From: an uncultured Prevotellaceae bacterium
GTDB lineage: Bacteria > Bacteroidota > Bacteroidia > Bacteroidales > Muribaculaceae
DNA: 64,000 bases
Direction: 5' to 3'
Assembly (NCBI GenBank): GCA_900318205.1
Contig: ONJS01000002.1
Coordinates: 18,689 to 82,688, forward strand
Position numbers and translations under genes: made by a program. The notes under the pieces were generated by a model. That model was not told the origin of the DNA. It was given only the letters and a program-made list of their open reading frames with translations, and ran no database searches. Positions 589 to 45,071 of this stretch are shown here, one piece after another (position 1 is the first letter of the stretch; every line of letters starts with the position of its first letter).

Positions 589-2631
589 ATGAAGAAATTA
601 TTATTCTTATTGTTAGGTTTAGCAGTAGCTGCTACCGCAAGCGCCGGAATCGTAGGAACACCGATGCAGAGCAAGGTTGTCAAGCAACAACCTAAGAGCA
701 AAGTACAGGCTGTTACTCGTGCTAATGGTTTGGTGGTTCCTGGTACCCCCATTTCCTTCAATGGTTGGGACAATCAATTCTCACATGTGTTGAGGTCACG
801 TGAGGCCATCACTTGGGACTTTGAGGATGCAGAACAGTTCGCAGAGTTCATGGCTGTTGACAATGATGAGGACGGCTTCAACTGGGAGTACTACAACAAC
901 ACTGGTCTCACGACTGGTCGTATGACAGCCCACGGTGGCGAAGGTCTTGTTGCATCTGCAAGTTATGACAATGACTCAGGTACTGCCTTGCATCCCGACA
1001 ACTGGCTGGTATCGCCTCAGGTAACCCTGGGTGGTGCTCTGACGTTCTGGGCTATGGGCCAGGATGCAAGCTATGCTGCCGAGAAGTTTGCTGTTTATGT
1101 ATGTGTTGGTGAACCTACAGGTACCGAGAGCTTCACTATGGTTGCTGGTGATTTCACTGCTACTGGTTCCTATGTACAGTATGAAATCGACCTGAGCGCT
1201 TATCAGGGTCAGGTAGGCTGCTTCGCTATCGTTCACCACAACATCACCGACATGTTCTTCCTGAATGTGGACGATATCGTGCTGGATGCTAGTGCAGTTG
1301 CTCTGCCTTATCCCGTTGTTCCCACTGGTCTGACCGTTGATCCCGGCATGACCACTGCCAATGTTGTTTGGGACAATGACGAGGCTGCTTCTAACTGGAA
1401 CCTGCGTTACAGGCCCTACACCGAGGGTGCTGGCGATATGTATTACTGGCCGTTCACTCTTGATAGCTATCAGCAGGATATGGAGGGCTGGCAGGTTTAT
1501 GATGCCGATGAGGACGGTAACAACTGGGGCCTTGCTTACTCAGACGATACCCAGTCTGACGTTTGCTTCTTCTCAGAGTCATGGTCATATGATACCTATC
1601 AGGCTCTGACTCCTGACAACTACCTGTTCACTCCCGAAGTTCCTCTGCAGGGCGTTCTCAAGTTCACCTATTGGGGAGCTTCTAATACCTATGTAGAGAA
1701 CTTTATGGTCTATGCTTTGATTGGTGAGGACATGTATGCCCTTGCTGACGCAGACTATGTTACCTCGACCACTCATGTGACCGAAACTATCGACTTGAGC
1801 GAATTTGAAGGTGCCGTTGGTCAAATCGTCTTCCGCCACTACAATTGCGAAGACCAGATGGCAATGTACATCGATGAGATCATGATCGGTACTGAGTTTG
1901 AGCCCGCTCCCTGGATTGAGGTGAATGGCCTGACTGAGGCTAAGTACACCATCGAGGGCTTGGATCCCGAGACCAAGTATGAGGTACAGGTAATGGGTTA
2001 CAACGAGGCTCATGAGTCTGACTGGTGCGACATCGTAGAATTCACGACCCTCGGCGAGGAGCCTGTAATACCCGATGTTTACATGCTGGGTGGTGACGAC
2101 CAAGGTTGGGCTCCTAACCGCGGTATCAAGTTCGACTACAACGAGGAGGATAACATCTACACCCTCAATTACACCTTCCCCGCCGAGACCAACTACTTCG
2201 GCTTCACCACCATGCTTGCCGAGTATGATGATCAGGGTAGCTGGGACTACATTGAGCCCTACCGCTTCGGTGCTGTTGCCGATGGTGATAACTTCATCTT
2301 CTATGATGAGTACAATGGCCAACCTCTGGAACTGACTTGGGATGCATACAAGGCCTTCCAGATTGGTGCAGGTGAGTATGACATCGTTGTTGACCTGACC
2401 AGCATGAAGGTCATCCTTACCAAGGTTAATGTTGAGCCTCCTTACCTTCGTGGCGACGTTGACAACAGTGGTGATGTTAAGATCGGCGACGTTACTGCTC
2501 TGATCAACTACCTGCTCAGTGGCGATGCAACTAACGTTAACGTTCTGGCTGCTGACTGCGACGAGAGCGGCGATGTTAAGATTGCTGACGTTACTGCTCT
2601 GATCAACTACCTGCTGTCTGGCACTTGGTAA
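589..2631 (+). CDS. Secreted multidomain adhesin-like protein: signal peptide, two cleaved-adhesin (choice-of-anchor J-like) domains, FN3, SusE/F-like domain, C-terminal type I dockerin
   Basis: MKKLLFLLLG signal peptide. PDNWLVSP/GQDASYAAEKFAVY/DMFFLNVDDI resemble gingipain/HagA adhesin domains. YTIEGLDPETKYEVQV is FN3-like. Duplicated DVDNSGDVKIGDVTALINYLL dockerin repeat. Confidence 0.85.
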   Translation: MKKLLFLLLGLAVAATASAGIVGTPMQSKVVKQQPKSKVQAVTRANGLVVPGTPISFNGWDNQFSHVLRSREAITWDFEDAEQFAEFMAVDNDEDGFNWEYYNNTGLTTGRMTAHGGEGLVASASYDNDSGTALHPDNWLVSPQVTLGGALTFWAMGQDASYAAEKFAVYVCVGEPTGTESFTMVAGDFTATGSYVQYEIDLSAYQGQVGCFAIVHHNITDMFFLNVDDIVLDASAVALPYPVVPTGLTVDPGMTTANVVWDNDEAASNWNLRYRPYTEGAGDMYYWPFTLDSYQQDMEGWQVYDADEDGNNWGLAYSDDTQSDVCFFSESWSYDTYQALTPDNYLFTPEVPLQGVLKFTYWGASNTYVENFMVYALIGEDMYALADADYVTSTTHVTETIDLSEFEGAVGQIVFRHYNCEDQMAMYIDEIMIGTEFEPAPWIEVNGLTEAKYTIEGLDPETKYEVQVMGYNEAHESDWCDIVEFTTLGEEPVIPDVYMLGGDDQGWAPNRGIKFDYNEEDNIYTLNYTFPAETNYFGFTTMLAEYDDQGSWDYIEPYRFGAVADGDNFIFYDEYNGQPLELTWDAYKAFQIGAGEYDIVVDLTSMKVILTKVNVEPPYLRGDVDNSGDVKIGDVTALINYLLSGDATNVNVLAADCDESGDVKIADVTALINYLLSGTW

Positions 2632-2682
2632 TTTCATGAATTCGCTCGCTTCATGAACGCATGAAGTGACAACCCCTATGCT

Positions 2683-2716
2683 TCAGGCATCTGTCCTCTA
2701 TCGGGCAGGTGCCTGA
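2683..2716 (+). terminator. Intrinsic terminator after the first adhesin gene
   Basis: tcaggcatctgtcc / gggcaggtgcctga stem followed by ttgtttttgt. Confidence 0.8.
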
Positions 2717-2835
2717 TTGTTTTTGTGACTTTCTTTGAGTAGTGGCGTGCCATGGGAAATGCTTACTATATATAATTTTTTTTCACGATAAACCAAAAAA
2801 ATACTGAATTACTTTTGCGAAATTAAAAAATAGTG

Positions 2836-2843
2836 TAATTTTG
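2836..2843 (+). promoter_or_regulatory. -7 box TAATTTTG, with TTTG at 2814-2817
   Basis: Bacteroidota promoter consensus upstream of 2952. Confidence 0.6.
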
Positions 2844-2951
2844 CATATTGATAAGAGATATCTATAATCTCACTATTAACCCTTCAATGCAAATGATTAC
2901 ATACAGGATATGTAACTGTTTTTATTTAATAACTTTAAAATTTAAACGTTT

Positions 2952-4964
2952 ATGAAGAAATTATTATTTTTACTTTTAGGTGTTGCTGTTGTTGCATCTG
3001 CTGGTGCAGGGATTACCAAATCCCCGATCCAGAAGAAGGTTTCTAAAATGGAACGCACCAAGTCAAAAGTTGAGGTGGTGACTCGTGCCAATGGCGTGAT
3101 TAGTCCGTCAACTACTCTAAATTTCTATGGTTGGGACAAGATGCCCAAGCACATGTTAAGGTCTGATGCCGCTATCACTTGGGACTTTGAGGATTCAACC
3201 CAGTGGGCAGCTTTCTCTGCTGTTGATGTTGATGATGACGGCTTTAACTGGCAGTATTTTGACAATACGGGTTTGACCTCTAATCGTATGTCAACTCACA
3301 GTGGTGAAGGCGTCATAGCTTCGGCAAGCTATGACAAAACTAGTGGCAAAGCCTTGACTCCTGACAACTGGCTGATTTCGCCTGAGGTAACCCTGGGTGG
3401 TGTCTTGTCGTTCTGGGCTGAGGGTCAGGATGCCAGCTATTGCGCTGAGGTGTTCGCCGTTTATGTTTGCATTGGCGATCCTGTTGATGATACTTCTTTC
3501 CAGAAGGTAAGTCAGGATTTCACTGCTACTGGCGAGTTTGTAGAGTATGAAATCGACCTGAGCGCATATCAGGGCCAGGTAGGACACTTTGCAATCCGTC
3601 ACTACAACGTGACCGATATGTTCTGGCTGAACGTCGATGACATCACGCTCGATCCTGAAGCTGTCGCTCTGCCTTATCCCGTTGTTCCTGAGATTAATGT
3701 TACTCCCGCCACCACCTCTGCTTATGTAGAGTGGGCTGCAGATGAGGCTGCCGACGCTTACAACCTGCGCTGGAGGCAAAAATCAGATGGTAAGGCTTGG
3801 AGTTTCCCCGTGGATGGCTATGTGGCTGAGCTCGAAGAAGGCTGGTGGATTTATGATGCCGATGGAGACAGCACTTGCTGGTCTCTGTATTATGCTGACG
3901 ATGCCCAAACAGATCTTTGCTGGGGCTCTGGTTCTTATCAGGGTGGTGGTGCTTGCTCTCCCGATAACTATCTTGGAACACCTGACGTGCCCTTGAAGGG
4001 TGACCTCAAGTTTACCTTGTGGGGAGCTTCAGATAACTATCCCGAGGTGCTCCAGGTTTATGCCATGGTTGGTGAAGACATGTATCAGCTCTTTGAGGAT
4101 TCTCTCCTTTCCACGGTAGAACCTGTAGAGTACACTGTTAACCTGGATGCATTTGAGGGTGCTGAGGGCAGCATCATCTTCCGCAACTATAGCACTTACG
4201 ACCAGTGGATGCTGTTCCTCGATGACATTACTATCGGTACTATTAATCCGTGGAACGATGTTACGGGTATTACCGCTCCTAACTACACCATCGAGGGCCT
4301 GACCCCCGAGACTACCTATGAGGTACAGGTAATGGGTTACAACGAGGCTCACGAGTCTGACTGGTGTGACATCGTAGAATTCACGACCCTCGGTGAGGAG
4401 CCTGCAATTCCCGATGTTTACATGCTGGGTGGTGACGACCAGGGTTGGGCTCCTAACCGTGGTATCAAGTTCGACTACAACGCTGAGGAGAACATCTACA
4501 CCCTCAACTACACCTTCCCCGCCGAGACCAACTACTTCGGCTTCACCACCGTGCTTGCCGAGTATGATGATCAGGGTAGCTGGGATTACATTGAGCCCTA
4601 CCGCTTCGGTGCTATTGCCGATGGTGAAAACTTCATCTTCTATGATGAGTACAATGGCCAGCCTCTGTCTTTGACTTGGGATGAGTACAAGGCATTCCAG
4701 ATTGGTGCTGGTGAGTATGGCATCGTTGTTGACCTGACCAACATGAAGGTCACCCTTACCAAGGTTGAGCCTACCTACCTTCGTGGCGACGTTGACAACA
4801 GTGGTGATGTTAAGATCGGTGACGTTACTGCTCTGATCAATTACCTGCTCAGTGGCGACGCAACTAACGTTAACCTTCTGGCTGCTGACTGCGACGAGAA
4901 CGGCGATGTTAAGATTGCTGACGTTACTGCACTGATCAACTACCTGCTGTCTGGCAATTGGTAA
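2952..4964 (+). CDS. Tandem paralogue of 589..2631 (adhesin-FN3-SusE/F-like-dockerin)
   Basis: Same architecture; C-terminal third nearly identical to the upstream gene at DNA level. Confidence 0.85.
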   Translation: MKKLLFLLLGVAVVASAGAGITKSPIQKKVSKMERTKSKVEVVTRANGVISPSTTLNFYGWDKMPKHMLRSDAAITWDFEDSTQWAAFSAVDVDDDGFNWQYFDNTGLTSNRMSTHSGEGVIASASYDKTSGKALTPDNWLISPEVTLGGVLSFWAEGQDASYCAEVFAVYVCIGDPVDDTSFQKVSQDFTATGEFVEYEIDLSAYQGQVGHFAIRHYNVTDMFWLNVDDITLDPEAVALPYPVVPEINVTPATTSAYVEWAADEAADAYNLRWRQKSDGKAWSFPVDGYVAELEEGWWIYDADGDSTCWSLYYADDAQTDLCWGSGSYQGGGACSPDNYLGTPDVPLKGDLKFTLWGASDNYPEVLQVYAMVGEDMYQLFEDSLLSTVEPVEYTVNLDAFEGAEGSIIFRNYSTYDQWMLFLDDITIGTINPWNDVTGITAPNYTIEGLTPETTYEVQVMGYNEAHESDWCDIVEFTTLGEEPAIPDVYMLGGDDQGWAPNRGIKFDYNAEENIYTLNYTFPAETNYFGFTTVLAEYDDQGSWDYIEPYRFGAIADGENFIFYDEYNGQPLSLTWDEYKAFQIGAGEYGIVVDLTNMKVTLTKVEPTYLRGDVDNSGDVKIGDVTALINYLLSGDATNVNLLAADCDENGDVKIADVTALINYLLSGNW

Positions 4965-5015
4965 TTTCATGAATTTGCTCGCTTCATGACTACATGAGGC
5001 GACAACCCTATGGAT

Positions 5016-5049
5016 TCAGGCATCTGTCCTTTATCGGGCAGGTGCCTGA
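5016..5049 (+). terminator. Duplicated copy of the 2683 terminator
   Basis: Same stem arms tcaggcatctgtcc / gggcaggtgcctga. Confidence 0.75.
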
Positions 5050-5191
5050 TTGCTGTTGTAATGAGGGTTGGTGAATTGCTGTCCGTAACTAAATATTTTG
5101 ATTATTTTGTTGATTGTAAGGAAAAATGTATTAATTTTGGCCAAAATTTAACTTTGTGATACATTATTTCTATAATTCAAAAACCTACATT

Positions 5192-5971
5192 ATGAAGAAA
5201 TTTTACCTTTTATTATTGGCCTTGGCATTTGCTAGTAGTGCCTTTGCCCAGCTTTCTGAAGATGTTCCTGTTCCTGCCGATCCCGATGGATTGTTCTTTG
5301 AGTGGTATGACTACACACCTTATGAGTGGCCTAATGGCGAGGTGACGGTTGCGTCTGGTTGGTTTTTTCTTACCTACGGTATGGATGTATATGAAAACCT
5401 TGTTGCGACTGACTATGACATCTCGATTGATTCGTGCTATGTCCATGAGCTCAACTACACGATTCTTGACAGGGAGAAATTCAGCTATAGCATCTACACC
5501 GACATGGATGAAATCTTTGTTTTCAATCCTGAGGAGTTTTCTGAATTTACTGAGCCGACGACCAATGTCTATATCTTCAACATCCTGCCAAAGACTCCTG
5601 ACGGATATGGCTCAACTGCCAATTTCGAGTATTGGGGACCTCACTTCCCGAACAGGACTAACAAGGTGGAAGGCTTTGATGGCATGAAACCATTCTTCGA
5701 GTGGCGTATCGGTATCCAGACCCATTACACCGACAATGGCGTCACCACCTCGTCCAATATCATCTATTATGAAATCGGTCCCAAGCCTGTTACGTTACAG
5801 GGTGACGTGAATGCTGACGGCAAACTCAGCATTGATGACGTGACGGCTCTCATCAGCTACCTGCTGGGTGGTGATCCTGATCCTTTCAACAAGTTTAATG
5901 CCGATGGTAATGACGATAACAAGCTGACCATCTCAGATGTGACTGAAATCATCAGCATCATGCTGAATTAA
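5192..5971 (+). CDS. Secreted protein, unrecognised N-terminal domain plus C-terminal dockerin
   Basis: MKKFYLLLLALAFASSAFA signal peptide. GDVNADGKLSIDDVTALISYLL dockerin repeat. TAATTTTG at 5132-5139. Confidence 0.8.
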   Translation: MKKFYLLLLALAFASSAFAQLSEDVPVPADPDGLFFEWYDYTPYEWPNGEVTVASGWFFLTYGMDVYENLVATDYDISIDSCYVHELNYTILDREKFSYSIYTDMDEIFVFNPEEFSEFTEPTTNVYIFNILPKTPDGYGSTANFEYWGPHFPNRTNKVEGFDGMKPFFEWRIGIQTHYTDNGVTTSSNIIYYEIGPKPVTLQGDVNADGKLSIDDVTALISYLLGGDPDPFNKFNADGNDDNKLTISDVTEIISIMLN

Positions 5972-38496: not shown

Positions 38497-39711
38497 TTAC
38501 GGTTCGCGGCCTTCGATGATGGCTTCGGTGTCTTTGGCGATCATGTATTCCTCGTCGGTGAGGACGACAACGACCTTGACCTTGCTGTCAGGAGTGCTGA
38601 TTTCACCTTCCTTGCCGCGCCACAGGGTGTCGTTCAGTTCTTCATCAATCTTGACGCCCAGGTATTCCAGTTGTTTGCACACGCGCTTGCGGGTCTGGTA
38701 CTGGTTCTCGCCAACACCACCGGTAAAGGCGATGATGTCCACACCATTCAGCTCGGCTGCATAGGCACCGATGGTCTTGAGGATGCGGAGCTCATACATG
38801 TCGAGTGCCAACTGAGCACGCTCGTTGTGGTCCTTCTCGGCTGCATCAACAACATCGCGCATGTCGCTGCTCACGCCAGTGATACCGAGCACACCGCTCT
38901 TCTTGTTGATGATGTTGAGCATCTCCTTCGGGCTGAGGTTGTATTTCTCCATGAGGAACAACAACGCACCGGGATCGACGTCACCCGAGCGGGTACCCAT
39001 CATCAGGCCCTCGGTGGGGGTGAGACCCATCGTGGTGTCGATGCTCTTGCCGTCCTTGATAGCGCTGATGCTGGCGCCGTTACCGATGTGGCAGCAGATG
39101 ATGCGCTTGCCCTCGGGGGTAGTGCCGAGCATTTCGCACACGCGCTGAGCGATAAAGCGGTGGCTGGTGCCGTGGAAGCCATAACGACGCACGTGGTCGT
39201 TGGTGTAATACTCCATGGGCAGGGGATACATGAAGGCCTTCTTGGGCATCGTCTGGTGGAAAGCGGTGTCAAACACGGCTACCTGGGGAACACCGGGCAA
39301 TACAGCCTCGATGGCCTCGATACCAGCCATATTAACGGGATTGTGCAGCGGAGCGATGCCGTAGCACTCGCGGATCATGTCCTTCACCTCGTCGGTGATG
39401 AGGACACTGCGGCTGAACTTCTCACCACCGTGTACTACGCGGTGACCGACGGCGTCAATTTCCTTCAGGTCCTTGATGCAGCCATATTCGGGATTGATGA
39501 GAGCATCGAGGATAGCCTTGATGGCACCCTTGTGGTCGATGAGGCCCAGGTCGATGTTCTTCTTGCTGCCGTCATCAAATTTCAGCTTGATGAAACCGTC
39601 GGGCAAACCGATTTTTTCTACACCGCCCTCGGCGAGGGTCTTGTTCTCCTTAATCTCGATGAGTTTGTACTTGGCAGAGCTGCTGCCACAGTTAAGCACT
39701 AAGATATTCAT
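38497..39711 (-). CDS. ackA: Acetate kinase
   Basis: LNCGSSS, GHRVVHGG, APLHNP, YGFHGTSH, TRSGD. Confidence 0.97.
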   Translation of the reverse strand: MNILVLNCGSSSAKYKLIEIKENKTLAEGGVEKIGLPDGFIKLKFDDGSKKNIDLGLIDHKGAIKAILDALINPEYGCIKDLKEIDAVGHRVVHGGEKFSRSVLITDEVKDMIRECYGIAPLHNPVNMAGIEAIEAVLPGVPQVAVFDTAFHQTMPKKAFMYPLPMEYYTNDHVRRYGFHGTSHRFIAQRVCEMLGTTPEGKRIICCHIGNGASISAIKDGKSIDTTMGLTPTEGLMMGTRSGDVDPGALLFLMEKYNLSPKEMLNIINKKSGVLGITGVSSDMRDVVDAAEKDHNERAQLALDMYELRILKTIGAYAAELNGVDIIAFTGGVGENQYQTRKRVCKQLEYLGVKIDEELNDTLWRGKEGEISTPDSKVKVVVVLTDEEYMIAKDTEAIIEGREP

Positions 39712-39764
39712 GTTTTAAGTTTAAACTATTATCTATAATCTATTATCTATTATCTGTTCTCTAT

Positions 39765-40775
39765 TTATCGGTTGATTGCCTGGTTGCAGGTCAGGATGAC
39801 GGTGCGGTAGATGTCGTCCTCGTTGCAGCCGCGCGACAAGTCGTTGACGGGAGCGGCAAGACCTTGCAGGACGGGACCCACGGCCTTGGCGCCAGCGATG
39901 CGCTGAACCAGTTTGTAAGCGATGTTACCTACGCCCAGGTCGGGGAACACGAGCACGTTGGCATGGCCAGCGATGTCGCTGCCGGGAGCCTTGCTGGCAC
40001 CCACACTGGGAACGATAGCGGCGTCTGCCTGCAGTTCACCGTCGATCTTCAGGTTGGGATTCATCTCCTTGGCGAGACGGGTAGCCTCGACTACTTTATC
40101 TACACGCTCATGCTTGGCGCTGCCCTTGGTCGAGAAGCTCAGCATGGCAATCTTGGGATCGTCGATTTCGGCGAGAGCGCGTGCGGTGCGGTCGGCACTC
40201 ACGGCAATCTGAGCCAGCTGCTGGGCGTCGGGATCAGGCACAACAGCACAATCGGCAAACACCATCACCCCATTGTGGCCGTAGGGCGAACCCTCGGGCA
40301 ACAGCATCAGGAAGGCACCGCTCACCGTGCTGATACCGGGCGCAGTCTTGAGCACCTGGAAGGCAGCTCGCAGTACATTGCCCGTGGTGTTCATTGCACC
40401 GGCAACCTGTCCGTCGGCATCGCCGTTCTTAATCATCAGGCAACCCAAGTACAGCGGGTCAAGCACCTTCTTGCGGGCATCCTCGATTGTCACACCCTTG
40501 GCTTTGCGCAGCTCGTAGAACAGCTGGGCATATTTCTCGACAGCCTCGGCATCATTGGGATTGATGACGGTGGCCTTGTCGATGTTCTTGAGACCAAGTT
40601 CAGTGGCCTTGGCCATGATTTCAGCCTTGTCGCCAATGAATACCACGTCGGCAATGCCGTCGGCGATGATGCGGTCGGCTGCTGTCATGGTGCGGGGTTC
40701 AGTACTCTCGGGAAGAACGATGCGCTGCCTCTTGGCAATCGCGTTGCTTTTGAGTTTCTCAAATAAAGGTTCCAT
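39765..40775 (-). CDS. pta: Phosphate acetyltransferase
   Basis: IVLPES, MLSFSTKGS, DGELQADAA, NDLSRGC. Confidence 0.97.
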   Translation of the reverse strand: MEPLFEKLKSNAIAKRQRIVLPESTEPRTMTAADRIIADGIADVVFIGDKAEIMAKATELGLKNIDKATVINPNDAEAVEKYAQLFYELRKAKGVTIEDARKKVLDPLYLGCLMIKNGDADGQVAGAMNTTGNVLRAAFQVLKTAPGISTVSGAFLMLLPEGSPYGHNGVMVFADCAVVPDPDAQQLAQIAVSADRTARALAEIDDPKIAMLSFSTKGSAKHERVDKVVEATRLAKEMNPNLKIDGELQADAAIVPSVGASKAPGSDIAGHANVLVFPDLGVGNIAYKLVQRIAGAKAVGPVLQGLAAPVNDLSRGCNEDDIYRTVILTCNQAINR

Positions 40776-40994
40776 GTTTCTTTTGTTAGTATTTTAGGAA
40801 AACTGATGAATGTTCGTTTTGCTGCCACAAAGGTACTGCAAGCTGAACACAATGGCAAGAAAAAAACGATTTTTCTTGCCATTGTTGAAGCGCACCCTGC
40901 CTAAGCCCTTGCGTCCCTGACGGGACTTTTGACCGGACACAAAATAAATAAAAATCAGACAACCTGGAGTGCAAGTTGCCTGATAATTAAAAAT

Positions 40995-41021
40995 CTTCGC
41001 GCCTTCGCGCCTTAGCGTGAG
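40995..41021 (+). repeat. Octamer-period REP-like arm, related to 13508-13534
   Basis: cttcgcgc cttcgcgc cttagcgtgag versus cttagcgg cttggcgg cttagcgtgag. Confidence 0.6.
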
Positions 41022-41043
41022 GCTAACTGTAGGCGTTAGTGTC

Positions 41044-43359
41044 TTATTCGCCGTCAAGAATAGCAGCTATGATTGCGTTGATGTCGGCGATGTTGATTTC
41101 TCCATCACCGTTAACATCATAGACCTCATCAAAGGTGTCATTATTGTCGATAATCGTATCTATACAACAATTGACATCAGCTATATTGATTTCTCCATCA
41201 CCATTGACGTCTGCCGAATCAAAGTTTATACCAACGATATGTTCAATCCATTTCCACGGATAGGTAGTCTTGTATATCTCCACTGAATTGATCGGCACAT
41301 AGACTGTTGTCAAATGCTCCAGATGGGGATTTATTGACGACATGGCTGGCGGTGTCTCTGCTTTACAGTATATGCTAGATATCGCATTGTCCTCAAAAAA
41401 GGTGTTGGCGCCTATATTTGTTATTGATTTTCCAAAGCTGATAGAGGTCAGATTCTTACAGTAAGAGAATGAATGTGTGCCAACTTGTGTTACAGAATTG
41501 GGCAACTTGACATTTTTCAATGCTTCGTCATCGCTAAATGCATATTGACCAATTTTATTCAATGACTTGCCGAAGCTAATTCTCTCAAGTGCCTTACAAT
41601 CATGGAAAGAATAGTCTCCTATAGTGGTCACTGAATTGGGCAGAACTATTTCGGTAAGCATCTTGCAGTTATCAAATGCATATCCCCTAATCTTTTGTAC
41701 AGAATTGCCAAACTTTACGTTTTCGAGCGATACACAATTCCGGAAAGTGCCTTTGCTGATTTCGGTGACAGAGTTGGGAATGACAATACTGGTCAGTTTA
41801 GAGCAATCCAAGAATGCGCTATCCCCGATACTTGTTATTGAATTGCTCAGTTCAACATCAGTCAATGCCGTACAGTTAACGAATGAGTATTTCCCGATAA
41901 TCGATGCTGAAGCACTGGGGATAGTCACTTTGTTGAGTCCTCGGCAATCCCAAAATGCCGCTTCACCGATTGTTTCAAGGTTCGTTGGGGTGATGACCTC
42001 TGTTAGGCTATAACAATGACTAAAAGCATAGTTGCCGATGCTTTTAATGTTATCTGGAAGATCAAGAAGATAAGGTAAACTCTTGCATCCATATAGCGCA
42101 TAGTCACCAATTGCCGTTATGTTTTCGTTCCAACGTATATCAACGAGACTTTCGCAGTTAGCAAATGTCTCTCTATATAGTTGTGTTATCCCATTACCCA
42201 GTTGCACATACTTCAGACCACGACATTCTTCAAAGGCATAGTTACCTATTTCAGTCACTTGATCGGGAATACTGACTGAGGTAAGGCTCTTACAATCAAA
42301 AAATGCACCAAAACCAATCGTTTTGAGAGATTCTGGTAGGGTGAAGTTGGTTAGATTTTCGCAACACGAAAACGTCCAGTGTGGAATTTCAGTCAAGGAT
42401 TTTCCAAAATTAACTTGTTCCAGACCTGTGTAAGAAAATGACTCATGGCCAATACTAGTTACTTTGTCATGAATAACCAAACTTTTCAGATTATAATAGC
42501 CATAGAAAGCAAACGGATAAATCTCGGTGATGGACTCGGGAATGATCAAATCAACAACCTCCTTGCCGTCTGCGATGAGATTTTTGGCATAGCACATCGG
42601 GTTGGAGAAAATATAGGAAAAGTCAATTTGTAACCACGACTCTATATTGGGGATATAGATGTTTTCCAGGCTGTCACAATAATAAAAAGGATCAGTACCA
42701 ATGTACCGCAATGTGCTGGGTAGGTGGATGTTTTTTAGACTATAGCAATAGCCGAACAAATACTCATTAATTTTCGTGAGACCTTCGGGTAATGTGACAT
42801 CCTGAAGTGATGTACAAGCGTAAAATGCCATTTTGCCAATCATTTGGACAGAGTTAGGGATGTCAATGGACGTTATTGACGAACCGATAAAAGCCCATGG
42901 TTGGATTGCAATGACAGTATTTGGCAATTGTACACTAATTAAATTGCTGCAACCGGCAAAAGCATAATTACCTATTTCGGTCACAGTATAGGTGTTCTCA
43001 CCATTTATAACTGTCGATGGAATGATAATGTTTCCATAATAATTTGAACCATTTTCATCTAAGTCCATGTTTTCATCGTAGGTCACGCTCACCTCGTTTT
43101 CACTGATGATTTTGTAACAGATACCGTCATACTTGAAGTCGAAGTTCTGGCCTTGGGCACGATGGATTTCAGACTGAAAATCATCGGGCATAATCCTATG
43201 TTCTGACTTGTAATTTGCAGGTTTGTCATGTCCGAACTTGTTGTATGCCATTTTGTAATTGACATCAAGGATTTTATCAGTCAACACATCACTTTCTGTT
43301 GCAAGTGATGTCAAGAGTGTAGCAATTAACAGGTAAAAGAAGAAAATAAACCGTTTCAT
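41044..43359 (-). CDS. BspA-like leucine-rich repeat (LRR_5) surface protein with C-terminal dockerin
   Basis: Many IG.YAF..C..L..I.IP.SV repeats; DVNGDGEINIADVN dockerin duplication; signal peptide. Confidence 0.9.
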   Translation of the reverse strand: MKRFIFFFYLLIATLLTSLATESDVLTDKILDVNYKMAYNKFGHDKPANYKSEHRIMPDDFQSEIHRAQGQNFDFKYDGICYKIISENEVSVTYDENMDLDENGSNYYGNIIIPSTVINGENTYTVTEIGNYAFAGCSNLISVQLPNTVIAIQPWAFIGSSITSIDIPNSVQMIGKMAFYACTSLQDVTLPEGLTKINEYLFGYCYSLKNIHLPSTLRYIGTDPFYYCDSLENIYIPNIESWLQIDFSYIFSNPMCYAKNLIADGKEVVDLIIPESITEIYPFAFYGYYNLKSLVIHDKVTSIGHESFSYTGLEQVNFGKSLTEIPHWTFSCCENLTNFTLPESLKTIGFGAFFDCKSLTSVSIPDQVTEIGNYAFEECRGLKYVQLGNGITQLYRETFANCESLVDIRWNENITAIGDYALYGCKSLPYLLDLPDNIKSIGNYAFSHCYSLTEVITPTNLETIGEAAFWDCRGLNKVTIPSASASIIGKYSFVNCTALTDVELSNSITSIGDSAFLDCSKLTSIVIPNSVTEISKGTFRNCVSLENVKFGNSVQKIRGYAFDNCKMLTEIVLPNSVTTIGDYSFHDCKALERISFGKSLNKIGQYAFSDDEALKNVKLPNSVTQVGTHSFSYCKNLTSISFGKSITNIGANTFFEDNAISSIYCKAETPPAMSSINPHLEHLTTVYVPINSVEIYKTTYPWKWIEHIVGINFDSADVNGDGEINIADVNCCIDTIIDNNDTFDEVYDVNGDGEINIADINAIIAAILDGE

Positions 43360-43413
43360 TTTCGATAGTATAGAAGGTTATGTTAGATGTTTTCAAGTGT
43401 GTGATATAAATAT

Positions 43414-43596
43414 AGAGGCTGTGTCATAATTCATTCGTTTCAAATTGAGTCGCGCTTCGCGCGAGAAATTAAGCAAAAATTTGTATAAAAAATTAAGCAA
43501 AATACATTTTTTATTTTAATTTTATTAATAATTTTGTTTAATTTCTCGGCCGTCAGGCCGATTAAAAATAACGAGGTGAATTATGACACAGCCTCT
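43414..43596. mobile_element. 183 bp MITE-like element
   Basis: Perfect 20 bp terminal inverted repeats agaggctgtgtcataattca / tgaattatgacacagcctct; TAT on both flanks. Confidence 0.75.
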
Positions 43597-43608
43597 TATA
43601 GACGAGGG

Positions 43609-44862
43609 TTACTCGCCGAGGATGGCTGCTACGCCGGGGAGGGTCTTGCCCTCGATAGCCTCGAGCATGGCACCGCCACCAGTCGAAACGTAGGATACCT
43701 GGTCGGCCAGGCCAAACTTGTTGACAGCAGCAACCGAGTCACCACCACCCACGAGTGAGTATGCACCATTCTGAGTAGCTTCAGCCACATACTTGGCGAT
43801 TTCGCCAGTACCATGAGCAAAGTTCTCAAACTCAAACACGCCCACGGGACCGTTCCACAGGATGGTCTTGGAGTCGAGGATGATCTTCTTCCAGTTAGCC
43901 AATGAGGCTTCGCTGGCATCCATACCCTCCCAACCATCGGGGATGTTGTAGATGTCAACCGTCTGGCGGTTAGCGTCGTTGGAGAAGCTGTCACCGGCAA
44001 CGGTAGCTACCGAGAGGCTCAGGTTCACGCCCTTCTCCTTGGCTGCGGCGATAACGTTCAATGCCTCGGGCATCAGGTCGTCCTCATGCAGCGAGTCGCC
44101 GATGTGGCCACCCTGTGCTTTAATAAAGGTATAGCCCATACCACCACCAATGATGAGGTTGTCCACCTTATCGAGCAGGTTCTTGATGACTGACAGCTTG
44201 GAAGATACCTTGCTGCCGCCGATGATAGCGGTGAAGGGATGCTGGGCATTCTTCATCACGTTGTCGATAGCGGTCACCTCTTTCTCCATGAGGTAACCCA
44301 GCATCTTGTGGTCGTTGTCAAAGAAGTCGGCGATCACGGCTGTCGAGGCGTGACGGCGGTGAGCTGTACCGAAGGCGTCGTTCACATACACGTCGGCATA
44401 GCTTGCCAGCGTCTTGGCAAACTCGGTCTGACGGGCCTTCATCTCCTTCTTGGCAGCGTCATAGTTGGGATCATCCTTTTCGATACCTACGGGCTTGCCT
44501 TCCTCCTCGGGATGGAAGCGCAGGTTCTCGAGAATCAATACTTCACCGGGCTTGAGCTCATCGGCCTGTTTCTTGGCCTCGGCACTGTCTTGTGCAAACT
44601 GAACGGGCCTCTCCAGGGCTGCAGCAACGGCACTGGTGATCTGGCTCAGGGAGAGCTTGTGGTTGATCTTGCCCTTGGGCTTGCCCATGTGGGACATAAT
44701 GATCAGGGCACCACCATCAGCGAGGATTTTCTTCAGGGTGGGGACTGCTCCGCGGATGCGAGTGTCGTCAGTAATTTCACCTTTTTCGTTCAGGGGCACG
44801 TTAAAGTCTACGCGCACGATTGCCTTCTTGCCGGCAAAGTTAAAGTCATTAATTTTAGCCAT
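43609..44862 (-). CDS. pgk: Phosphoglycerate kinase
   Basis: [36 protein letters not shown]; start moved to MAKIND. Confidence 0.97.
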
Positions 44863-45071
44863 TTTTACTTTATCATTGAATAGTTGATAATTGTATTTCA
44901 ATTTCAAAACTGCAAAGTTAAAAATTTTTCGTTTATTAATGTGCATTTTGTTTGTAAAAAACAATATTTTAATGGAGTTTATTACGTTTTTGCCATTTTT
45001 AAGATTTCACATCAACCGTCAACCGACTTTTTGCGCTATATTTGCCTGCTGCAAACTAAAATTTGAAAAAT

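Follow-up and report, generated by a model that had tools for sequence, protein, structure and literature searches.

A probable cohesin-dockerin surface-assembly system in uncultured ruminant-gut Bacteroidales

We analyzed a 64,000-nucleotide stretch of DNA, hereafter the window, from contig ONJS01000002.1 of an uncultured Prevotellaceae bacterium (GCA_900318205.1), in which four predicted proteins (P1 to P4) end in a dockerin module. The window lies at C23:18689-82688 of a metagenome-assembled genome (MAG) of 3.62 Mb in 53 contigs, with 51% GC, 94.8% completeness and 2.3% contamination. The four genes and their dockerin modules, with Pfam Dockerin_1 (PF00404) scores, are as follows:

589..2631, + strand: P1, 680 aa; signal peptide, two cleaved-adhesin/choice-of-anchor-J domains, fn3, a ~120-aa unassigned module and a C-terminal dockerin; putative cargo subunit
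2452..2616, + strand: P1 dockerin module, aa 622-676; 36.6 bits; 'TT' helix allele
2952..4964, + strand: P2, 670 aa; tandem paralogue of P1 with identical architecture
4785..4949, + strand: P2 dockerin module, aa 612-666; 38.1 bits
5192..5971, + strand: P3, 259 aa; signal peptide, N-domain without annotation, dockerin
5801..5956, + strand: P3 dockerin module, aa 204-255; 31.5 bits
41044..43359, - strand: P4, 771 aa; signal peptide, BspA-type leucine-rich repeat (LRR_5) array, C-terminal dockerin
41056..41214, - strand: P4 dockerin module, aa 716-768; 30.4 bits; 'NN' helix allele

All four dockerins exceeded the Pfam gathering score of 22.9 bits, and each sits at the extreme C-terminus as a duplicated F-hand whose calcium-loop motif is visible in the protein tail. 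Their occurrence is far beyond chance, with at least 151 places in the same genome matching Dockerin_1. P1 and P2 each contain two Cleaved_Adhesin domains, named choice-of-anchor J in NCBIfam (114 and 94 bits), followed by fn3, and the LRR_5 array of P4 scored 472 bits. Scans with Pfam and NCBIfam found no known domain in the N-terminal part of P3, and detected neither a glycoside hydrolase (GH) domain nor the TIGR04183 sorting domain of the type IX secretion system (T9SS) in any of the four proteins. An earlier reading, made from the letters of the window alone (the sequence-only reading), had described these proteins as ending in a duplicated calcium-binding dockerin and as lacking both GH and T9SS C-terminal domains (CTDs); both descriptions held. 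The translated N-termini carry Sec-type signal peptides without a lipobox cysteine, and P1 to P4 are accordingly predicted to be Sec-exported proteins of the signal peptidase I type rather than lipoproteins.

The two paralogues have not diverged evenly. The last 720 nt of the P1 and P2 genes are 90% identical and the first 1200 nt 65% identical; at the protein level, identity is 87-97% over the last ~200 aa and 40-80% over the N-terminal 440 aa. The end comprising fn3, the unassigned module and the dockerin looks homogenized, perhaps through gene conversion, while the adhesin domains diverge.

Dockerins are abundant across the genome. A hidden Markov model (HMM) trained on the genome recovered them in 206 stop-to-stop open reading frames (ORFs), of which 164 have the dockerin ending no more than 15 residues from the stop and 42 have it in an N-terminal or internal position. 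By a simple heuristic, approximately 197 of these ORFs have a signal-peptide-like N-terminus and approximately 11 are lipoprotein-like. In a column profile of 184 genome dockerins, positions 1, 3, 5 and 12 of the calcium loop were occupied by D, N, D and D in 100, 80, 89 and 99% of modules in repeat 1, and in 95, 70, 79 and 100% in repeat 2. The calcium-coordinating positions of both F-hand repeats, each ~22 residues long, are therefore D or N in 70-100% of modules, and by these residues the genome's dockerins are bona fide type I dockerins. Two helix alleles dominate in calls from HMM columns, T/T with 82 modules (including P1 to P3) and N/N with 55 (including P4), a hint of distinct specificity classes.

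We scanned 203 trimmed dockerin proteins with Pfam (E ≤ 1e-5) for the domains that accompany the dockerin. Single-linkage clustering of the cargo had lumped 136 proteins through shared LRR and immunoglobulin-like (Ig) modules, and the full Pfam census was used instead. The numbers of dockerin proteins per family were:

LRR_5: 39
Peptidase_C10: 26, most with an I69 propeptide
CotH: 16
FGE-sulfatase: 14
DUF285: at least 10
Alpha-amylase (GH13): 6
Peptidase_S8: 5
Endonuclease_1: 4
Omp28: 4
Peptidase_M6: 3
GHL10: 3
Cleaved_Adhesin: 3
GH53: 2
GH32: 1
PAD_porph: 1

These counts imply that the cargo consists mainly of adhesins and proteases, with glycosidases making up approximately 12 of the 203 proteins (six GH13, three GHL10, two GH53 and one GH32). 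These adhesin and protease classes are T9SS cargo in Porphyromonas, Tannerella and Prevotella. The sequence-only reading had called the dockerin-tailed proteins non-enzymatic, which is accurate for the four in the window and fails for the system as a whole, where the 26 C10, five S8 and three M6 peptidases and the ~12 glycosidases are also dockerin-tagged.

Some of the docked cargo is unusual. Fifteen ORFs combine a signal peptide and an N-terminal dockerin with an FGE-sulfatase (SUMF1-like) domain, for example G000:C30:128250-129281 and C20:19073-20059, and dockerin is paired with a CotH kinase domain in 16 proteins. Five further ORFs have an Lcl_C/DUF1566-like tail after the dockerin, which is N-terminal in only some of them.

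Candidate partners for these dockerins were largely invisible to the standard model. Pfam Cohesin (PF00963; gathering threshold 24.1 bits) matched the genome in two places only, at 26.2 and 17 bits, both within dockerin-bearing proteins; the stronger match, in a protein on contig C32, rose to 35.8 bits when the protein itself was scanned. An HMM iterated from these two modules converged in one round and identified 17 cohesin modules in 12 ORFs, listed here by domain order (SP, signal peptide; Coh, cohesin; Doc, dockerin):

C32:45134-47230: 698 aa; SP-Coh-Coh-Doc-Coh-tail (the C32 scaffold)
C23:91750-94728: 992 aa; two to three Coh plus tail, 9 kb past the end of the window
C26:83353-88197: 1614 aa; two Coh plus tail
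C39:22248-24395: 715 aa; LRR-Doc-Coh-tail
C46:29973-31964: 663 aa; LRR-Doc-Coh-tail
C39:1205-3061: 618 aa; Coh, ending in a tail
Three ORFs, each immediately downstream of a scaffold gene: ~220 aa; SP-Coh-Doc adaptors
One ORF: 829 aa; LRR-Coh-Doc
One ORF: 175 aa; Coh only
One ORF at a contig end: 118 aa, truncated; Coh

When a profile of 15 of these modules was compared with sequences in the Protein Data Bank (PDB), all top matches were cohesins, including 5n5p of Ruminococcus flavefaciens (the best), NagJ of Clostridium perfringens, CohA2 of Clostridium acetobutylicum and 2xdh of Archaeoglobus fulgidus. We also modeled the last 423 residues of the C32 scaffold with AlphaFold2 (AF2), using a 20-sequence alignment from related loci. 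The model had a predicted local distance difference test score (pLDDT) of 89.5 and the order sandwich-helical-sandwich-sandwich. Its domain-sized Foldseek matches were solved cohesins (6kgc_A, 2xdh, 2vo8, 5nrm_A and 3ul4_A) with template modeling (TM) scores of 0.74-0.81 and root-mean-square deviations (rmsd) of 2.2-3.0 Å. The predicted structure confirmed the cohesin fold, a nine-strand jelly-roll beta-sandwich.

Six of the cohesin proteins end in a beta-rich, CTD-like tail. It takes two forms, one of ~70 aa (e.g., '...RIYADGHDIIVESPIAQRIVISDVAGH...GVILVNAGEKTAKLMIK') and one of ~45 aa ('...VRYFNMAGQEM.EANGLTIVVTTYTDGTTSAVKVVK'), and a single HMM grouped both in a family of 36 ORFs, each of which has the tail at its very C-terminus. 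Pfam and NCBIfam scans of the six scaffold tails returned sub-threshold matches to Por_Secre_tail and DUF6383 only, and a profile of 29 tails matched nothing meaningful among PDB sequences. The sole recurrent family match was TIGR04183, at E ~7e-4 in 3/29 and 3/20 tail-family members. When aligned with homologues from further Bacteroidales MAGs, the scaffold tails stay in register; these homologues finish with an '...LxKGVYIINGKKVVVK' motif or with '...KGVYIINNKKVVVK'. AF2 predicted a seven-strand sandwich with pLDDT > 90 over residues 21-82, and the top 20 Foldseek matches included the CTD of RgpB (7pq4, 30% identity; 5ag8), 5hfs, the mirolase CTD, and the RemA CTD within a T9SS complex (8gl6_D; TM 0.62/0.67, rmsd 2.8). 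It is likely, on convergent weak evidence, that the scaffold tails are CTDs. The ~45-aa tail, in the form '..VAGVRYFNLAGQEM.EANGLTIVVTTYTDGTTSAVKVVK', terminates approximately 30 proteins, such as G000:C30:200728-201258 and C36:21685-25420, and scores below the TIGR04183 cut-off of 23 bits; it probably represents a shorter version of the T9SS sorting signal that has gone unannotated.

The genome encodes the machinery that would read such a signal, including SprA (2641 bits), PorU (918 and 687 bits) and GldM/PorM (530 bits). Canonical TIGR04183 domains number only seven in this genome, which makes the family of 36 tails the obvious candidate for the main cargo signal. Taking tails and machinery together, we are fairly confident that the scaffolds are routed through the T9SS. 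The two PorU paralogues lie 2 kb apart, at G000:C25:125903-129157 (687 bits) and C25:130982-134290 (918 bits), and may correspond to two classes of sorting tail. In addition to the full-length SprA on contig C24, a partial SprA-like ORF at G000:C26:68953-70302 (502 bits) matches positions 761-1195 of the model and contains an in-frame TGA; it is either a pseudogene or fragment, or an artefact of the assembly.

We next compared the distribution of both modules across 18 other species of the same genus and twelve genomes that each represent a different further family of the order. Dockerins were present in 17 of the 18 congeners (43 to more than 140 each), and the same 17 have 1-16 cohesins. The sole congener without dockerins also has no cohesins while retaining SprA; this 2.2-Mb fragmented MAG serves as a natural control for loss or non-acquisition. 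Among the twelve genomes of other families, there was no cohesin and a single dockerin match in one genome. As judged from presence and absence, gain and loss affect the two modules jointly. Using the C32 scaffold as query, we retrieved 38 loci from MAGs of the ruminant gut, labeled Bacteroidales, Prevotellaceae, Prevotella sp., Bacteroidaceae or Muribaculaceae. Homologous loci at the genus level retain the pair of a Coh-Doc-Coh-tail protein and a 219-aa Coh-Doc adaptor. More distant loci have a recurring three-gene cassette encoding a ~1300-1480-aa dockerin protein with a canonical CTD, a ~700-aa protein with three cohesins and a dockerin, and a ~400-aa Coh-CTD protein. Against public data, the cohesin profile matched 9,740 representative clusters, 1,450 of them at E ≤ 1e-30, implying that a large share of Bacteroidales surface biology is unannotated.

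Contamination with Firmicute DNA was rejected as a source of the dockerins. More than 40 contigs carry dockerin genes, among them the contigs of SprA, PorU, pgk and ackA-pta, and the trait is shared by congeners. Within the window, pgk, ackA and pta lie at 38497-44964, adjoining P4, which places dockerin genes on a housekeeping contig. At its 5' end, the window encodes at positions 3-314 the C-terminal portion of a membrane protein that resembles TatC.

The dockerin appears to stand in for the T9SS CTD found on homologous adhesins of other Bacteroidales. P1 has more than 1000 homologues, and those at 40-98% identity mostly carry PF00404. Others, 47-53% identical over the same adhesin-fn3 core, end instead in the CTD-type sequences '...GIYIHNGKKVVIK', '...YYYNLMGQKVSGNLPAGIYIHNGKKVVIK' or '...VYTVTGIQVNKRSDLPKGIYVVGGKKIVVK'. 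The presence of either tail on the same core indicates that the anchor has been swapped, which fits the NCBIfam name choice-of-anchor J. The N-domain of P3 likewise recurs in two proteins of the same genome that have a short CTD-like tail (32-35% identity, E 2e-8). These alternatives bear out the sequence-only reading that the dockerin occupies the position of the CTD. That reading had further proposed that the dockerin may be a docking tag for a cohesin scaffold, and had named a genome-wide HMM census of Dockerin_1, Cohesin and T9SS CTD/Por genes among its tests. The census returned many dockerins as well as cohesins with predicted anchoring tails (~206 dockerin ORFs, and 17 cohesins in 12 proteins, six with a CTD-like tail), which supports the proposal.

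In metagenomes of bovine gut and rumen, drawn from several studies, the locus reached a word share of 0.95. Metatranscriptome contigs from four bovine runs in three studies spanned gene 1 from ~450-620 to ~2613-2623 at depths of 20-110. Depth over the spacer at 2628-3015 was zero in the same runs, which favors an origin in mRNA over carried-over DNA. Genes 2 and 3 had weak coverage (depth about 0-10) in the same four metatranscriptomes; the three neighbors are not co-expressed as an operon.

We conclude, with a probability of roughly 0.7, that P1 to P4 are cargo of a cohesin-dockerin system for surface assembly, shared across the genus, in an uncultured lineage of ruminant-gut Bacteroidales. 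Our results show the identity of the dockerins, the cohesin fold, the co-occurrence of the two modules, the presence of T9SS machinery, the exchange of anchors among homologues and the transcription of gene 1. Under the proposed model, Sec would move both cargo and scaffolds across the inner membrane. Since the scaffolds end in a likely T9SS-type CTD, SprA and the rest of the T9SS would translocate them, and the PorU sortase would attach them to anionic lipopolysaccharide (A-LPS) by analogy with Porphyromonas cargo. Cargo dockerins would then bind cohesins non-covalently and in a calcium-dependent manner, either directly or through the ~220-aa adaptors, with each scaffold offering one to three cohesins. 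The predicted outcome is an outer-membrane display rack that would hold adhesins, peptidases of the C10, S8 and M6 families, CotH and FGE-like proteins and, in small number, amylases and further glycosidases at the cell surface.

Several observations weigh against this model. The Pfam threshold was passed by 1/17 cohesin modules, and 15 were found only by the genome-trained profile. The scaffold tails fall below the TIGR04183 cut-off, with the best at 15.7 bits (E 0.011). Their Foldseek E-values are weak (3e-3 to 7e-2, for a 62-residue sandwich), and generic FN3/Ig domains match as well. RNA from the C32 scaffold and its adaptor was barely detectable in runs rich in gene 1, as a few low-depth fragments; this amounts to low-level detection at most. 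ORF starts and signal peptides were called by simple heuristics on a ~95%-complete MAG. Finally, approximately 200 non-lipoprotein cargo proteins have no CTD and no recognized route across the outer membrane, and surface docking therefore needs an additional step. Two candidate routes were rejected: the type II secretion system (T2SS), as no secretin was found in the genome, and lipoprotein surface export for most of the cargo, as only ~11 N-termini are lipobox-like.

One candidate for the additional step is export by piggy-back, in which cargo would fold in the periplasm and dock on the cohesin of a CTD-bearing carrier, and the non-covalent complex would pass through SprA. The cohesin-dockerin pair might then be a T9SS export coupler as well as an anchor, with one sorting signal serving approximately 200 proteins. 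We regard this mechanism as a minority possibility, and the coupler role as equally tentative. Such coupling would suit ~200 cargo proteins with a Sec signal, no CTD and a lipobox in ~11 only, in a genome where the T9SS was called complete and neither a secretin nor a T2SS was found. BspA, C10, PAD, Omp28 and cleaved-adhesin proteins are moreover classical T9SS cargo with homologues that have CTD-type tails, and the scaffold and adaptor cassettes are conserved. The stoichiometry is nevertheless unfavorable, with six CTD carriers for ~200 cargoes and far less scaffold RNA than cargo RNA, and a carrier would be left occupied after PorU cleavage and anchoring. The mechanism is also pure inference, and hitch-hiking on the T9SS has, to our knowledge, no precedent; if true, it would be the first described. 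Export might instead be passive, with cargo released by lysis or in vesicles and captured by the cohesins of sister cells, or with complexes remaining in the periplasm or the vesicle lumen. The lack of a known export route for the cargo is compatible with this explanation, and Bacteroidales shed vesicles abundantly. However, an extracellular site of action is expected for adhesins, LRR proteins, amylases and proteases, vesicle sorting in Bacteroides favors lipoproteins, which the dockerin cargo are not, and spending ~5-6% of coding capacity on a lysis-dependent system seems costly. We consider this explanation improbable.

The remaining alternatives do without cohesin docking. Dockerin-like modules might be calcium-binding units that stabilize proteins or bind ligands, unpaired with the cohesin-like modules, like scattered non-cellulosomal dockerins. 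Dockerins that stand alone, with no cohesin in the genome, are common among bacteria and archaea (Peer et al. 2009, cited in PMC6487960), which lends this idea some plausibility. It is very improbable here given the joint gain and loss of both module types, the existence of cohesin-dockerin adaptors and cohesin-dockerin-cohesin scaffolds, and the discrete helix alleles (82 TT and 55 NN) that suggest specificity classes. Least probable of all is that the dockerin acts as a new class of signal for secretion or sorting at the outer membrane, read by the T9SS or another machine, with cohesins incidental. In favor of such a signal, which the sequence-only reading had offered as an alternative, are the location of the dockerin at the C-terminal position of the CTD in 164/206 proteins and its replacement of the CTD in homologues. 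The 42 dockerins in N-terminal or internal positions argue against a C-terminal signal, as does the helical EF-hand pair, which is unrelated to the Ig-like CTD. A dockerin signal would also leave the strict co-occurrence with cohesins unexplained, and dockerins are present on CTD-bearing proteins as well; the secretion-signal proposal is not supported.

Taken together, the surface-assembly system appears to be a cellulosome-style plug and socket in a Gram-negative cell, of which we found no description in the literature searched, nor any of T9SS-linked cohesin scaffolds. Dockerin ORFs affiliated with Prevotella and Bacteroides, including C10 peptidase-dockerin proteins, have been reported from cow and camel rumen metagenomes at the level of a census, without report of Bacteroidetes cohesin partners or a T9SS link (PMC6487960, PMC6071333). 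One study placed cohesins in Firmicutes MAGs only (PMC5830445), and a later survey of camel-rumen MAGs in Firmicutes_A only (PMC9177762), the latter probably because cohesins like those described here fall below standard HMM thresholds. Rumen surveys with the standard cohesin HMM detect the dockerins and miss the sockets. Cohesin-dockerin assembly is usually treated as a Gram-positive, fiber-degrading strategy. Here, its connectors occur in numbers equal to the largest known cellulosome, on predicted Bacteroidota-specific T9SS anchors, and carry adhesins and proteases. This raises the question of how ~200 soluble proteins without a known outer-membrane export signal arrive at the surface, and offers a natural Gram-negative display scaffold for engineering.

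The closest parallel is the cellulosome of R. flavefaciens, with its ScaA/ScaB scaffoldins, ScaC adaptor, sortase-anchored ScaE and ~220 dockerin proteins. The two systems share a rumen habitat, a similar dockerin count, several cohesin scaffolds and small cohesin-dockerin adaptors, and the R. flavefaciens cohesin 5n5p is the best PDB sequence match of our cohesin profile. Much of the cargo of R. flavefaciens also lies outside the carbohydrate-active enzymes (CAZymes), including LRR proteins and peptidases, and its base scaffold is covalently anchored to the surface. Unlike the system described here, R. flavefaciens is Gram-positive, uses an LPXTG sortase to attach to peptidoglycan, faces no outer-membrane problem, and has cellulases and hemicellulases as core cargo. 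The Bacteroidales scaffolds have T9SS CTD-like tails, no more than three cohesins per scaffold seen and no carbohydrate-binding module (CBM) reported on those scanned, and serve a cargo with ~12/203 glycosidases. With scaffolds of two to three cohesins, adaptors and ~206 dockerin ORFs, the system has the multi-cohesin scaffoldin and many dockerin subunits that characterize a cellulosome, and lacks the CAZyme-dominated cargo, the scaffoldin CBM and the Gram-positive anchoring by S-layer homology (SLH) domains or LPXTG.

Non-cellulosomal pairs offer a second comparison. The NagJ/NagH toxin complexes of C. perfringens, the amylosome of Ruminococcus bromii and the mucinolysome of Limousia all assemble proteins other than cellulases, and NagJ cohesins rank near the top of the matches, by sequence and by fold, of the cohesins described here. 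These systems are all from Firmicutes, with few partners or glycan-degrading cargo and no link to the T9SS or an outer membrane. That link is instead provided by T9SS display in Porphyromonas gingivalis and Tannerella forsythia, where gingipains/HagA, BspA, PPAD and C10 proteases carry a CTD and are attached by the PorU sortase to an A-LPS anchor. Shared with these species are cleaved adhesins, BspA LRR proteins, Peptidase_C10, PAD_porph and Omp28, together with SprA/Sov, PorU and PorM, and the scaffold tails have a predicted fold like the CTDs of RgpB and mirolase. The difference lies in how the anchor is distributed: each cargo protein of P. gingivalis and T. forsythia has its own CTD and covalent anchor, whereas here a CTD or CTD-like tail is found on the scaffolds and ~40 other proteins, and a dockerin on ~200.

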